64,000 nucleotides of DNA from Eledone cirrhosa (lineage: Eukaryota). Each line of letters begins with the position of its first letter. The first letter of the stretch is position 1. The position numbers and the translations under genes were made by a program. This document shows positions 4,499-57,678 of the stretch, piece after piece. Below the pieces are notes generated by a model that saw only the letters and a list, made by a program, of their open reading frames with translations, did not search any database and had not been told where the DNA came from. Location of the stretch: positions 9,920,001 through 9,984,000 of the forward strand of contig OZ024766.1 in NCBI GenBank assembly GCA_964016885.1. Reading direction: 5' to 3'.

Positions 4499-4569
4499 TA
4501 TTTTATCTGATGATAACGCAGATATCATCCCATGATGATATTTGTTTTTGAAATGCGCATAATAAAATA
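4499..4569 (+). ncRNA. Type I hammerhead ribozyme motif (family A)
   Basis: Stem I TATTTTAT/ATAAAATA; CTGATGA at 4507; ~12-bp stem II hairpin; GAAA at 4550; palindromic stem III ATGCGCAT; predicted cleavage after A4561. Confidence 0.75.
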
Positions 4570-5008
4570 CTTGGAACTCTTTTAACCATCTTTTGATCTT
4601 ATATTATATATATATATATATATATATATATATAAGACCCGTCCCACCCTTGCAAGCAGGGAAAAGCGGACGTATGATGATGATGATGATGATGATATTG
4701 AGTACTTTAGTGCGTTATGGTCCACCTGGTTCCTTACCACATTTCCTTCGTTATATATATATATATATATATATATATATATACACATATATTCATAGAT
4801 ATATATATACACAGACACAGAGTGGGACTTACGTATAAGCTAAACAAGCTATAGCTTAGGGCCCCCACTTTTTTGGGGCCCCGAAAAAGTACTTTGGTGC
4901 GTTATGGTCCACCTGGTTCCTTACCACATTTCCTTCGTTATATATATATATATATATATATATATATATTCATAGATATATATTCATAGATATATATATA
5001 CACAGACA

Positions 5009-5364
5009 CAGAGTGGGATTTACGTATAAGCTAAACAAGCTATAGCTTAGGGTCCCCACTTTTTTGGGGCCCCGAAAAAAATTGAAAAAAAAAAAATCCT
5101 CAAAAAACGGTGTGTACATTTCCAAAATATAAGATAAAAAAAAGAACTAAAATAATTGTTTCTACGTTAGGCACAAGGCCAGCAATTACCCAGTGTATTA
5201 CTGGTAAGGATGAAAGGCAAAGAACTAAAATGATGAAATAGCTTTAAACGGTTTTCGGCTTTAATATTGAACGTTTTGCAGTTTTTATAACATTTTTTAT
5301 AACATATAAAGGGCCCCATTATCTCAAATAACTTAGGGCCTCATCAAATCTAAATCCGGCCCTG
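5009..5364. mobile_element. hAT-like MITE
   Basis: Degenerate TIR cagagtgggattta / taaatccggccctg; near-TSD cacagaca/cacacaca. The 5' end is locally duplicated (~4700-4890). Confidence 0.55.
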
Positions 5365-5720
5365 CACACACACCTGACAGACATATTGAGACGGAATAAC
5401 AATTCTACCACGTTTTACTCAGAAACTTCTAGTCAATACACCACCTTATATATATATATATATATATATATATATATATATATATATATATATATGCAAA
5501 AGTTCTATTTAAATTGTTGGGATACAACAAGCAAATATTTTTATAACTGATATAAAGCACTCAACAAGTATTTGGAGTAAATATACGATATTAACAAATG
5601 GAAACTATATTTATAAAACGTAGATTTGTAAATTTATAAATATATAATAAATTGAAGTGAAAGCAACTGGTGCGTGTGTTTCTTATTGGCAACATGACCC
5701 TCCCAAAGTATAACCATATT

Positions 5721-5785
5721 TATTTTATTATACATATTTCAAGGATACCATGGTAAATTATGGTATGCTTTCATCAGATAAAATA
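5721..5785 (-). ncRNA. Type I hammerhead motif (family A), left arm of a fold-back
   Basis: Reverse complement reads tattttat CTGATGA aagcataccat..atggtatcctt GAAA tatgta TA ataaaata. Confidence 0.75.
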
Positions 5786-5916
5786 TAATATAGAGCAGTT
5801 TTATAAATAAATATTGACATACCCTTAAAAAATGCAACCATCCGGGAGCTTCCAACAGTAATGGTTGCATTTTTTAAGGGTATGTCAATATTTATTGATA
5901 AAACTGATCTATATTG

Positions 5917-53919: not shown

Positions 53920-53959
53920 CTCGTAGCTGTGACATTTCTTCTAAGTCGTCGTCAGCCAT
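53920..53959 (-). CDS. WDR70: WDR70 exon 1, distal duplicate copy
   Basis: Same 40-nt coding sequence and donor as 50463-50502, inside the tandem duplication. Confidence 0.6.
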
Positions 53960-55553
53960 GCTTGTTTCTTGTTGTGGTCGGTTTCTGTCTCCTTTCAGTG
54001 GAGAGCGATATTCTGAAGTAAGGTGGGATGGGGGGGGGGGAAATTATTTGTGTGTGTGTATATATATATATATATATATATATATATATATAATTATCTA
54101 TATATATACACACACACACACACACACATATATATATATATATATATATATATATATATATATATACACACACATATATATATATATATATATATATTTA
54201 TTAAAATAACATTAAAGTTTAAGCAAAGAATCGCTGTTTTCACCCTTAACGGGATCTTCTCTTTAATCTGTTATTTTAATAAATATTTGCTCTACGGTTC
54301 TTATATATTTGTTATATATTTTCCTTATCGAGCCCTCTTTGGATTTTAGTCTTCAATTTTATTATTACTATATATATATATATATATATATATATATATA
54401 TATATATATATATATATATATATATATATATATATATATATATATATAACGAAGGAAGTGTGGTAAGGGTAAGGAACCAGGTGGACCATAACGCACAAGA
54501 GTGTTCGATACTTGGGGTAGTAGAGTGGGTAATAGGAAAAGAGTCAGGACCCCGGCGGCTGAGCTCCAGCCGTTTACGTCCGCTTTTCCATGATTGCAAG
54601 GTTGCGACAGGAACTGATTCCAGCTTGATTTCTACAGCTGGATGCCCTTCCTAACACCAAGCTCATTTACAGTGAGTGCTGGGCGCCTTTTTGCCGTGGC
54701 ACCTCCACGACCACTTTGCAGTGGAATGATAGGGACCCCAGTCCCTATCATCTCATTTCTACAGCTGAGTAAACTGGAGCAATGTGAAATAAAGTCTCTT
54801 GCTCAAGGAAACAACACATCACCCGGTCTGAGAATTGCACTCGCAACCTTTCGATTGCAAGGCCAATGCTCTAACCACTAAGCCATATGCCTCCATATAT
54901 ATATATCATCATCATCATCATCATCGTTTAACGTCCATCTTCCACGCTAGCATGGGTTTGGACGGGGATTTTCCCACTTGAGGCAAGATTGGTTGTCTTG
55001 CTCTTATAGGACTGCCTGGCGGGTTTTCTACGGCTGGATGCCCTACCTAAAACCAACCACATTTACAGTGTGGACTGGGAGGTTTTTACCGTGTTGCCTA
55101 CACGGCCACATTACAGCGTGGACTGTGTGTTTTTTTTGTCGTGACACCTACACGGCCTCATTTATTTAGGACTGCATGTTGTGGTACCAACATAACTTTA
55201 CATCGAAAGGGGTGGTGTGTATGATGTGGGGGTGGTGTATTTTTGTTAGAGGTGCCTACTGACTGTAGATTTCGCTTTGTACTTAAGCAAGGCGGGTCTT
55301 CTGTATTACTATGTAGCGCCAAAGATCTCGGTCCAGTGACATTGTCTTGGAGAGGTGTAAGTGTGTGAGGTAATATATATATATAACAGATTCAGCTCTC
55401 AAGACCAAATTTTCCTCTTTGCAAAGTTGACTTTTAGGTCTTTCAGCTCGAGGTTCTTCTCCCATGCTTGAAATGTTGCCTCTAACTCTCCTACAGATTC
55501 AGCTATGAGATACTAGGTTGTCAGCTTATAGGAGCTCCCATGGATTGCCTGTT

Positions 55554-55824
55554 TTAGCCCTTTAGCATTTACATTACTCTATATATACTATTGTATTTTC
55601 ACAGTAAAGGCTTTACCTCACATAATATATCACATAACATTTACATTACTCTATATATACTATTGTATCTCACATAATTATCCCACATAATATTGAATCT
55701 ATGAGATTTTGATATTATTTATTTTGAGATTAATGCCTTAACATCAGTATAAGCAGCCGGTTACAGCTGGTTTGAACAGAAAGGGGTGAGATAATTCTGG
55801 CCGGTTTAAATGCTAAAGGGTTAA
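55554..55824. mobile_element. piggyBac-like MITE, near-complete
   Basis: TTAG-CCCTTTAGCATTTA ... TAAATGCTAAAGGG-TTAA (14-bp TIR). Confidence 0.85.
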
Positions 55825-57290
55825 ACTCCTCAATAATGGCCTGAAGGACAATGATAAACAAGAGTGGGCTGAGGACTGATCTCTGGTGGACTCCTACCTA
55901 CACTTCAAATTCTTCACTGTACTCATTGCCAACTCTCACTCTGTTGGTTGCACTTCTATACATGTGAAGGCACGTGGCTTAGTGGTTAGAGCATTGGGCT
56001 TGCAAATGAAAGGTTGTGATTTCAATTCTCAGTTGTCCCCCATTAACTTTGCCTTTCATCCTTATGGGGTCGATAAAATAAAGTACCAGTAATACACTGG
56101 GTAATTGCTAGCCTTGTGCCAACAGTAGAAACAATTATTTGTGGGTGTTATGTTCCTAGAGCACCCACCAAGGCGCACGGCTTAGTGGTTAGAGCATTGA
56201 GCTTGCAATCGAAAGGATGTGAGTTCAATTCTCAGACCAGGTGATGTGTTGTTTCCTTGAGCAAGACACTTTATTTCACATTGCTCCAGTTTACTCAGCT
56301 GTAGAAATGAGATGATAGGACTGGGGTCCCTATCATTAAATCACCCAAGACACCTCCAACGAGATATACCTTGGAGGAGGCCAGCTAAACCTGCGTAGGT
56401 GTGAGCTGTCACACACACCACCAGTCATTACACTCTGGCCATGCTGGGGCACGACCAGTGACGGCACACGGCTTAGTGGTTAGAGCATTTGGCTTGCAAC
56501 CGAAAGGTTGTGAGTTCAATTCTCGGACCGGGTGATGTGTTGCTTCCTTGAGCAAGACACTTTATTTTACGTTGCTCCAGTTTACTCAGCTGTAGAAATG
56601 AGATGATAGGACTGAGGCCCTTATCATTAAATCCCCCAAGACACCTCCAACTAGATATAGCTTGGAGGAGGCCAGCTAAACCTGCGTAGGTGAGAGCTGT
56701 CACACACATACACACCTCTATACATGGCTTGCACAATCCTCACAAGCCATTCATTTACACCAAGCTTCCTAAGTGTCCACCAGATTATAGGGCGCAAGAC
56801 CTCGTAAGTTTGAAAGGCAAAGCTAACCTCAGCGGGACTTGAACTCACACCGTAAAGAGCCCTAACTCAGTGCCACAAAGCATGTTGTCCGACGCTCTAC
56901 CGAGCACTGCCAATCTCCCAAAACAACGAAACCAGAACAATATACATAGAAATCAGAATAAAAACACTTTTTAACATTTGTTCAAATATAATTTTATTTT
57001 TTAAAATTTATACAAAAAAATGAAACATCTTGGCATATAAAAATTATTATTATTATTATTGTTGTTATTATTATTATTATTATGTACATCATTACTGCCT
57101 TACTGAGCACAGCTATGTGTGCCTTGGCCACATGCAGTGTAGTTTTTGCTGATGTTTCTATTGTATTGATAGTACTTTTCGTAGTATGTGTGAAGTGCCT
57201 AGTAGTGCTATCTTTTGTATGCTGTATGTGTATATATATATATATATATTAGAAATTGGAATAAATGCTCTGAAATAGCGATATATATGT

Positions 57291-57678
57291 GAAGATAGAC
57301 ATAGAATATTCGAAAATATTCTGTATGTTTATAATAAACATTTTGAAGACCTAATCGCTATAGAATAGAATACGTCACGTATTACAATTAGATTCTCGAT
57401 AAAAGCAAGGGAAGTAACCTACGCGTTTCATTCTTATTAGAAATCTTCCTGTACACAGCTAAGTATTCTATAAGTCTCTAGCTGTGTCATTCTCGATAAA
57501 AGCACTGGATATGTAATCCTGAAGATTTCTAATAAGAATGAAACGCGTAGGTTACTTCCCTTGCTTTTATCGAGAATCTAATTGTAATACGTGACGTATT
57601 CTATTCTATAGCGATTAGGTCTTCAAAATGTTTATTATAAACATACAGAATATTTTCGAATATTCTATGTCTATCTTC
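57291..57678. repeat. Fold-back inverted repeat, ~158-bp apparently perfect arms
   Basis: 57291-57448 vs 57521-57678. Confidence 0.93.
57513..57555 (+). ncRNA. Minimal type I hammerhead (family E) in a fold-back
   Basis: gtaatc CTGAAGA tTTCT-aata-AGAAt GAAA CGCG TA ggttac; 6-bp stem I; palindromic ACGCGT. Confidence 0.78.

Follow-up and report, generated by a model that had tools for sequence, protein, structure and literature searches.

Predicted Penelope-like element ends and a retrozyme-type repeat bearing hammerhead motifs in 64,000 nt of the Eledone cirrhosa genome

The stretch of DNA described here, hereafter the window, comprises 64,000 nt of Eledone cirrhosa (contig OZ024766.1, positions 9,920,001 to 9,984,000), within an assembly of 3.0 Gb and 1,796 contigs (GCA_964016885.1). 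It carries five families of hammerhead-type motifs, named A to E, which are predicted to be self-cleaving. Very probably, families A, B and C represent the ends of Penelope-like elements (PLEs) of the Hydra clade, family D the end of a PLE of Neptune/Nematis type, and family E a repeat copied in trans, likely by a Penelope enzyme. The observations on which this reading is built are the motifs themselves, the covariation of stems in A and B, the linked genes for reverse transcriptase (RT) and GIY-YIG endonuclease, the 3' ends fixed in (TA)n, the variable 5' ends, the inverted second arms and the presence of a tail on a single arm. Both kinds, hammerheads in PLE ends and arrays of retrozymes, have been published before, and most of the result is annotation. 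PLE hammerheads, opposite-strand pairs 100-700 bp apart and U3-A8 cores were reported in 2014 (Cervera and de la Pena, PMC4209133), retrozymes in 2020 (Cervera and de la Pena, PMC7229834), and Hydra elements with hammerheads, including one of Octopus bimaculoides, in 2021 (Craig et al., PMC8557442). A PLE origin of retrozymes has been argued in a 2026 preprint (Li et al., 10.64898/2026.07.22.740005). Our literature search, outside which subscription journals and preprint supplements largely fell, found nothing on retrozymes of cephalopods, on retrozyme insertions with two arms and a tail, or on a subfamily with C3/A8, and a word search of the main text of a 2026 octopus repeat annotation (PMC13282606) found no mention of ribozymes.

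Hammerhead layouts in the window

A hand-written descriptor of the type I hammerhead (core CUGANGA, UUGANAA or CUGAGAA, stems I to III, UH) detected 11 complete layouts in the window, against a mean of 0.13 in 60 shuffles preserving dinucleotides within 500-nt blocks (53 of the 60 contained none) and 0 in the reversed window; this descriptor was composed after the motifs had been seen and admits the core of family C by name. The layouts, each with the position of its core C3, and the elements that carry them are listed below.

4499..4569, plus strand: family A-type hammerhead of the subfamily with stem III ATGCGCAT; C3 at 4507, predicted cut after 4561; solitary 3' end with (TA)n behind it
5496..6023, both arms: family A fold-back flanked by (TA)n runs, putative 3' end of a Hydra PLE; tail of about 90 nt at 5496-5585 on the left, inverted arm
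5721..5785, minus strand: family A hammerhead of the inverted arm; C3 at 5777, predicted cut after 5729
5917..5981, plus strand: family A hammerhead of the direct arm; C3 at 5925, predicted cut after 5973
12972..13032, plus strand: family A-type hammerhead of another subfamily; C3 at 12979, predicted cut after 13025
11120..11428, both arms: short family B fold-back, partly duplicated, with a 70-nt tail at left; complete motifs at 11205-11257 and 11325-11375 (both minus, C3 at 11250 and 11369), incomplete ones at 11257 and 11375 (both plus)
15542..16020, minus strand: longer family B 3' end, 479 nt of pseudo-long terminal repeat (pLTR)/3' untranslated region (UTR); complete hammerhead at 15551-15601, C3 at 15595
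25717..26177, both arms: family C fold-back, putative Hydra PLE 3' end with (TA)n on both sides; left arm with a tail of about 80 nt
25811..25906, minus strand: family C layout of the inverted arm, core CUGAGAA (C3/A8 unpaired); C3 at 25901
26067..26162, plus strand: family C layout of the direct arm, core CUGAGAA; C3 at 26072, predicted cut after 26157
45697..45861, minus strand: family D, putative 3' end of a Neptune/Nematis-type PLE; minimal hammerhead at 45734-45767, C3 at 45764
57248..57688, both arms: family E, with (TA)n on both sides; two partial units meeting head to head at 57446-57448; left arm with a 33-nt tail at 57248-57280
57513..57555, plus strand: family E hammerhead; C3 at 57519, predicted cut after 57549

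Truncated family A cores are also found at 10868 (minus), 12200 (minus) and 12513 (plus). The window copies of A, B, D and E possess the CUGANGA...GAAA...UH core, three stems and an open stem I. An initial annotation of this DNA, made from its letters alone, had proposed about five hammerhead families, and the excess of layouts over the shuffles bears this out. The short palindromic stems III that it described (ATGCGCAT, AACGTT and ACGCGT) are all present, as are four fold-backs with a motif on both strands, complete on each strand in A and C, complete on one and partial on the other in B and E. Its list of sites was incomplete, however, since the third family B motif (15595, minus) had been missed, and the CTGANGA core that it ascribed to family C reads CUGAGAA in the window. 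The family B site that it placed at about 11375 has only 2 stem I pairs on the plus strand, the complete B motifs being on the minus strand. Hammerhead families of Rfam were absent from the 150 matches listed of 234, a null which is uninformative for short AT-rich variants. Monomer folding gave weak z-scores (-2.8 to +0.4), as expected if, as is thought, such motifs act as dimers (PMC4209133).

Families A to D and the coding sequences upstream of them

Judged from their sequence, families A, B and C derive from protein-coding PLEs of the Hydra clade, of which they are 3' ends, truncated on the 5' side and often inverted. Searches of the genome for exact patterns on both strands, with 0 matches to each reversed pattern, returned 5,822 matches to a 23-nt core pattern of family A and 10,768 to a 24-mer of family B; 327 overlapping loci selected for families A to E (L001-L327, 1.07 Mb) were fetched. 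The stems of A and B covary. For family A, 18 hand-picked rows of 31 distinct ones were aligned, one palindrome subfamily and near-duplicates being omitted; 9 of 20 pairs were changed on both sides, mostly in stem II, with 95.2% of cells paired, and at most 3 pairs were so changed when the partners were slid. For family B (16 of 27 rows, those with truncated 5' strands omitted), 2 of 13 pairs were changed on both sides, in stem I, with 97.1% paired. The shuffle control used for covariation ignores the kinship of the rows, and its outputs are counts rather than probabilities.

All of the 30 best copies of family A terminate at one point in a TA run, and their 5' ends vary. Many copies of this family have an inverted second arm, which is the sole carrier of the tail of about 90 nt. 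Upstream of family A, L031 encodes an endonuclease containing CNCRNKSNC, and L408 an RT containing SDKT and YRDD. Pairs of B or C cores, either inverted or in tandem, enclose open reading frames (ORFs) of up to 597 codons for B and 531 for C. The ORFs that combine an RT with a C-terminal GIY-YIG domain, together with the other loci containing the family C ORF, are the following.

L173, 972-2762: family B
L169 and L177: family C, frameshifted
L408: family A
L166-L168: further loci with the family C ORF

These ORFs contain SDKT, YRDD, CxCX5C, GIY-YIG-like motifs, CxxC and CxH, as well as RWR in B and C, the N-terminus of A being outside the part seen; aligned, the endonucleases show the CxCX5C linker and CxxC and CxH around E and N, with no CCHH. 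Such motifs match the stated marks of the Hydra clade, namely the C-terminal GIY-YIG, DKT, an RWK-like motif (here RWR), CxCX5C and CxxC/CxH (PMC8557442). The same clade is characterized by (TA)n targets, a pLTR, a type I hammerhead near the 3' end, an inverted truncated copy and a tail at one end, all of which are found in A, B and C, and many of its listed motifs have the U.U-closed stem II (CUGAUGAU...UGAA) that is common to B and E. The present elements differ from those of PMC8557442 in the 3' UTRs of A and B, which measure 1.4-2 kb and bring the units beyond the reported <3 kb, in tails of about 70-90 nt instead of 30-40, and in the U3-A8 or C3/A8 core of family C, which is missing from the Hydra motifs listed there. 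The ribozyme-bearing elements had been proposed to be possibly undescribed in this lineage. This does not hold for the kind, a Hydra PLE with a canonical hammerhead being listed for Octopus bimaculoides (PMC8557442); the present families differ from it, the Hydra-1_Obim motif having 0 matches here.

When family B copies were sampled at the start codon, a whole hammerhead was found immediately upstream in 21 of 30, as in a pLTR-ORF layout, with the tail sequence between the hammerhead and the ATG; by eye, a like layout is present in about 12 of 30 family C copies. The start codon of B has 89 matches in the genome, against 10,768 for the core. The idea, taken from L174, that full-length copies start at the cleavage site was rejected, only 1 of 30 genomic 5' ends being located there. 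The notion of B as a fixed hairpin mini-element was also abandoned: the identical joints came from a query containing the joint, and a sample drawn by pattern shows varied joints. In the 5'-end samples, which contain both arms of some insertions and in which some scores are shortened by divergence, the 5' ends of 19 of 30 B copies fall 0-12 nt above the core, and a TATAAA is located 36 nt above it. Short B copies end as if the enzyme had run off a transcript beginning at stem I, 30 nt below the TATAAA, which is offered as a lead only. For family A, 15 of 30 5' ends lie 66-94 nt above the core, a loose fit to a TATA-set start, and for D there is no fit.

The tails of A, B and C have in common the word TTGAGT(A/G)C(C/T)TT, about 19-24 nt beyond the first RT start, which is a candidate protein-binding site; the family E tail has no clear match to it. 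In the window, the word is located as follows.

5560-5572, minus strand: tail word, family A
11160-11175, minus strand: tail word, family B
25762-25778, minus strand: tail word, family C

Degenerate family B ends without a complete motif are present at 14578-14705, 49987-50116 and 53444-53573.

Family D, with 3,432 genome matches to a 26-mer, appears from its sequence to be the end of a PLE of Neptune/Nematis type, these two being not separable here. Upstream of D copies lie a thumb-like stretch (L412), a CX4CxxC linker (CSRSRCNTC) and a GIY-YIG-like domain with CxxC in its loop and two His, in degraded frames, which corresponds to a CCHH endonuclease. Its hammerhead resembles the minimal ones of Neptune, Poseidon and Cercyon (PMC4209133) by an extra base after A9, a G10.1-C11.1 pair and a palindromic minimal stem III; A, B and C differ from these by longer stems II or III. 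The initial annotation was right in recognizing a hammerhead here, with 3 stem I pairs in the window copy and 4 in most copies, but there is no fold-back, and the 3' end of the window copy has been removed by a short interspersed element (SINE) with a tRNA head.

Several points weigh against these assignments. Pfam gave a weak GIY-YIG match only (E 0.022, below the cut-off) and no RT family in the ORFs; because of this weakness, the clade assignment depends on motifs recognized by eye. No ORF could be linked to the family A subfamilies with C3 at 4507 and 12979, the former having related copies in other loci, and no RT catalytic motif or RT core was found in the longer copies of family D. The covariation of family B is a single split to one sister subfamily, and related rows inflate the shuffle test.

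The initial annotation had considered the families to be mostly non-autonomous elements without any ORF, and the strongest form of this explanation would make all five separate non-autonomous ribozyme elements. Such a view agrees with the window copies, which all lack an ORF, with the predominance of short genomic copies (10,768 core matches against 89 for the start codon in B) and with the many near-identical B hairpins. It is nevertheless very unlikely, because longer copies of A, B, C and D continue into RT and/or GIY-YIG coding sequence, because 5' ends and inversion joints are variable, and because no head-to-tail arrays of short units were seen for A-D in the fetched loci. The window copies of A-D lack an ORF because they are 5'-truncated. 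Even less credible is the possibility that the motifs are dead relics or chance hairpins. The Rfam null, the weak folding of monomers and the poor cleavage of published minimal PLE hammerheads (PMC4209133) could be invoked in its favor, but it has to face 11 layouts against 0.13 by chance, two-sided stem changes around an invariant core, and the many further motif types of like build in the 1.07 Mb of fetched loci, roughly 25 or more being detected in the flanks with the same descriptor. Several of these other types have U3-A8 cores and palindromic stems III (CTACGTAG, CCGG, CTAATTAG, CTAG), and stem covariation is visible in some.

The fold-backs of the protein-coding families can be understood by comparison with the Poseidon element PAc of Anolis (Frangieh et al. 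2024, PMC11167929), where two internal RT starts define the tail, both target strands are cut and extended, the ribozyme precedes the ORF start or coincides with it, the template is uncut RNA, and insertion in vitro proceeds without any need of ribozyme cleavage. By extension, the RT-endonuclease of the present elements would nick both strands of the (TA)n target and start copying the RNA at two internal sites a short way downstream of the ribozyme; the spacing of these sites would equal the tail. The enzyme would copy through the uncut ribozyme, and the two cDNAs would join head to head; most products would stop early, leaving fold-backs without an ORF. PAc belongs to another clade and is not known to have been tested with a retrozyme template or a circle (PMC11167929).

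Family E and its two-armed arrays

Family E is a protein-free tandem repeat of 310 nt and the only one of the five families without an ORF. The unit (34% GC, longest stop-free frame of 59 codons) has a fold z of -3.9 as a circle, with a long stem I extension; in the window copy, stem I is prolonged by a 16-pair helix (57489-57504 / 57562-57577). Two overlapping patterns gave 2,620 and 11,886 matches, hence at least 11,886 units, and the 100 matches listed are mostly in 310-nt head-to-tail arrays of up to 27 units. Strand counts are uneven for E (1,049 against 1,571) as well as for B (6,746 against 4,022), which may reflect a few very large one-directional arrays somewhere. Genomic variants affect N7, loop II and stem I; in the latter, G-U/Watson-Crick swaps are one-sided only. 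Like variants occur in other sequencing runs, where a single low-depth contig also shows a break in stem II. The repeat was found in four such runs, and in one of them a contig circles the 310-nt unit, as tandem DNA would also produce, which is not RNA evidence.

With its non-coding tandem unit in the range of 150-400 nt, one type I hammerhead per unit and low GC, E conforms to the definition of a retrozyme; A-D do not, their long copies being coding and their short ones truncations. The non-LTR metazoan retrozymes (PMC7229834; 10.64898/2026.07.22.740005) similarly form head-to-tail arrays of non-coding units of about 300 nt, each with <45% GC and a single type I hammerhead, and co-occur with PLEs. 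The insertions of E differ from them in that two arms stand head to head in (TA)n and only one of these has a tail. In the main texts, a word search found no 'inverted' in PMC7229834 and no 'tail' in the preprint. Self-processing and circles have been reported for retrozymes of other animals (PMC7229834), and circular retrozyme RNA has been shown in coral, mussel and axolotl (PMC7229834; 10.64898/2026.07.22.740005), whereas E is known here from DNA. The initial proposal of PLE hammerheads with inverted ends stands, and that of a non-coding retrozyme-type element stands for E only.

The structure of the arrays was studied in a non-random sample of 20 fetched arrays, taken from the first matches of one contig and from others. 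Two head-to-head arms are present in 16 of the 20, and all 13 arrays with both ends visible have a tail on one arm only: one arm stops at a short site, the other 26 or more nt beyond, both in (TA)n. The window copy is the shortest form of such an array, with two partial units and a 33-nt tail. E insertions therefore bear the PLE signature of (TA)n flanks, head-to-head arms and a one-sided short tail, and their insertion by a PLE machinery is probable. Wherever both arms contain full units, a single haplotype is shared between them (12 of 12 arrays). In four arrays (L336, L337, L340 and L341), a variant private among the sampled arrays is carried by every unit of both arms (16/16, 15/15, 6/6 and 2/2 units). 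The mean number of differences between units is 0.61 within arrays (1,015 pairs) and 4.6 between arrays (171 pairs). Such arrays favor the copying of one RNA by a PLE enzyme, likely in both directions.

Transcripts of E arrays would be cut by the ribozyme to 310-nt units, acting as dimers via the palindromic stem III, and the units would likely be circularised. A PLE enzyme would then run round one E RNA several times in each direction. E would borrow this enzyme, most likely that of a Hydra element, because both use the same target and E has the same U.U-closed stem II as B. The detailed proposal is put forward tentatively, slightly on the side of doubt: E would be a young animal retrozyme for which a pair of Hydra-type enzymes primes from both (TA)n strands, with two starts 26 nt apart on one circle, and through up to 27 rounds produces two inverted clonal arrays in one event. 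For the circular nature of the template taken by itself, the arguments are about evenly balanced.

Other facts count against this proposal. Array L342 combines two types of unit in a mosaic (3 of 8 units), which argues against a pure monomer circle, and L334, L343 and L344 each have a variant repeated in 2 units; together, they point to multimer templates or local duplication. No autonomous element with the sequence of E was found in the fetched loci, the 26 weak matches listed being all self-matches. The mosaic and the repeated variants speak for a model in which E is moved by the PLE enzyme but its long arrays arise by linear read-through of arrays or by unequal crossing over, with no circle, along the lines of the satellite model of the preprint (10.64898/2026.07.22.740005); a short two-arm insertion with a private variant, grown later, would also show this variant on all its units. 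We incline to doubt this model while regarding it as a serious possibility, since both inverted arms are often long (9+9, 10+6, 8+6, 6+8 and 13+4 cores), their outer ends are exact, and the changes seen in most arrays are scattered ones affecting single units only.

The Discussions of PMC7229834 and 10.64898/2026.07.22.740005 leave open which enzyme moves animal retrozymes and whether arrays grow by rolling circle or local expansion. E is young, abundant and endowed with a PLE insertion signature, in a genome containing long Hydra ORFs, so that the enzyme can be brought together with this template in vitro, following the example of PAc; it constitutes a clean test case for retrozyme movement. 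If true, the rolling-circle reading of E would mean that the genome directly documents the retrotransposition, by PLE proteins, of circles made by ribozymes.

The core series of family C and other features of the window

Family C mostly represents the known U3-A8 core (PMC3088659; PMC4209133). Its older copies have UUGAAAA, UUGACAA, UUGAUAA and UUGAGAA cores, and the CUGAGAA subfamily of the window has 1,118 genome matches, against 2,316 for relatives with A, C or U at position 7 and 724 with UUGAGAA; the patterns have different flanks, and these counts are not strictly comparable. Canonical CUGANGA in family C has 0 genome matches. U3 is present in 96 of the 100 listed matches with A, C or U at position 7. 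Absence of position 7 as a family trait was rejected in view of the U3-A8 relatives, where N7 is free. The stems show one double change, in one copy, by informal inspection. In an unrooted tree of 64 of 91 rows over 200-nt stretches, whose bootstrap is not settled, the C3 copies form two groups, placed between older U3 groups and a group with U3 and G7 or U7. Variants of PLE hammerheads have reportedly been covered by Lunse et al. in 2017 and may already include this core.

The window copies lack the 3-8 base pair, C3 facing A8, which counts against their predicted cleavage, and their subfamily may be a weak or dead ribozyme. C3/A8 with G7 is not described in the available text of PMC4209133. 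On the plain reading, one substitution weakened the ribozyme and amplification continued, which fits the dispensability of cleavage for PAc insertion in vitro (PMC11167929). It is unlikely that family C evolved an active register-shifted core, with C3 paired to G7, position 7 lost and an extra A before stem II. The near-constant association of C3 with G7 (1,118 matches, compared with 4 of the 100 listed matches with A, C or U at position 7) speaks for it, as does the retention of C3 and of the stems in two subfamilies separated by a well-supported branch of 0.08. A single substitution of C for U in the UUGAGAA core, already present in the family (724 matches), would suffice, however, and the normal register is fixed by the U3-A8 relatives, in which any base (A, C, G, U) may occupy position 7. 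Cleavage is dispensable for PLE insertion in vitro (PMC11167929), activity fell upon an insertion beside A6 in PMC3088659, and the tree supporting the two subfamilies is the unrooted, unsettled one. Family C offers a natural core series (UUGA[A/C/G/U]AA and CUGAGAA), the copies of each core numbering in the hundreds or thousands, with which the importance of cleavage for the spread of PLEs can be tested. Scraps of the family, with tail and 3' end and no complete motif, are located at 4696-4783, 4888-4969, 6166-6256, 30408-30549, 51574-51735 and 54414-54575.

About half of the window is tandem repeat (30,640 of 64,000 nt masked), and its long ORFs are mainly translations of microsatellites and scraps of retroelements; the overall set of repeats appears octopus-like. 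ARAGORN found no tRNA genes in it. The other repeats are listed below.

6240-6579, 10208-10522, 13226-13540, 44914-45254, 45370-45702, 47220-47553, 51733-52062 and 54573-54904: copies of a SINE-like repeat of about 340 nt
2173-4470: minisatellite, 48-nt unit
20630-23571: minisatellite, 65-nt unit
28694-30129: minisatellite, 72-nt unit
30888-32105: minisatellite, 61-nt unit
35308-40234: minisatellite, 49-nt unit
57688-59185: minisatellite, 74-nt unit

The SINE-like copies are 91-98% alike, and their tRNA-like head is deduced from Rfam tRNA matches at 6266, 13227 and 56470. Among the minisatellites, the 48- and 49-nt units are alike, and further copies of the 72-nt unit are located at 42425, 48872 and 52723. 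A local duplication, 99% identical and with several repeats inside, links 49919-50593 to 53376-54058 and 51609-52722 to 54449-55565; it is either a recent segmental copy or an assembly artefact. Finally, a 186-codon frame at 7363-7923 (minus) resembles what we take to be the restriction-like endonuclease end of a non-LTR retrotransposon, a family B locus includes fragments presumably of a Helitron-like helicase (L171, 1768-3441, minus), and what we assume to be a nearly whole L1/Tx1-like long interspersed element lies near a family A copy (L031, 131-2500, plus).

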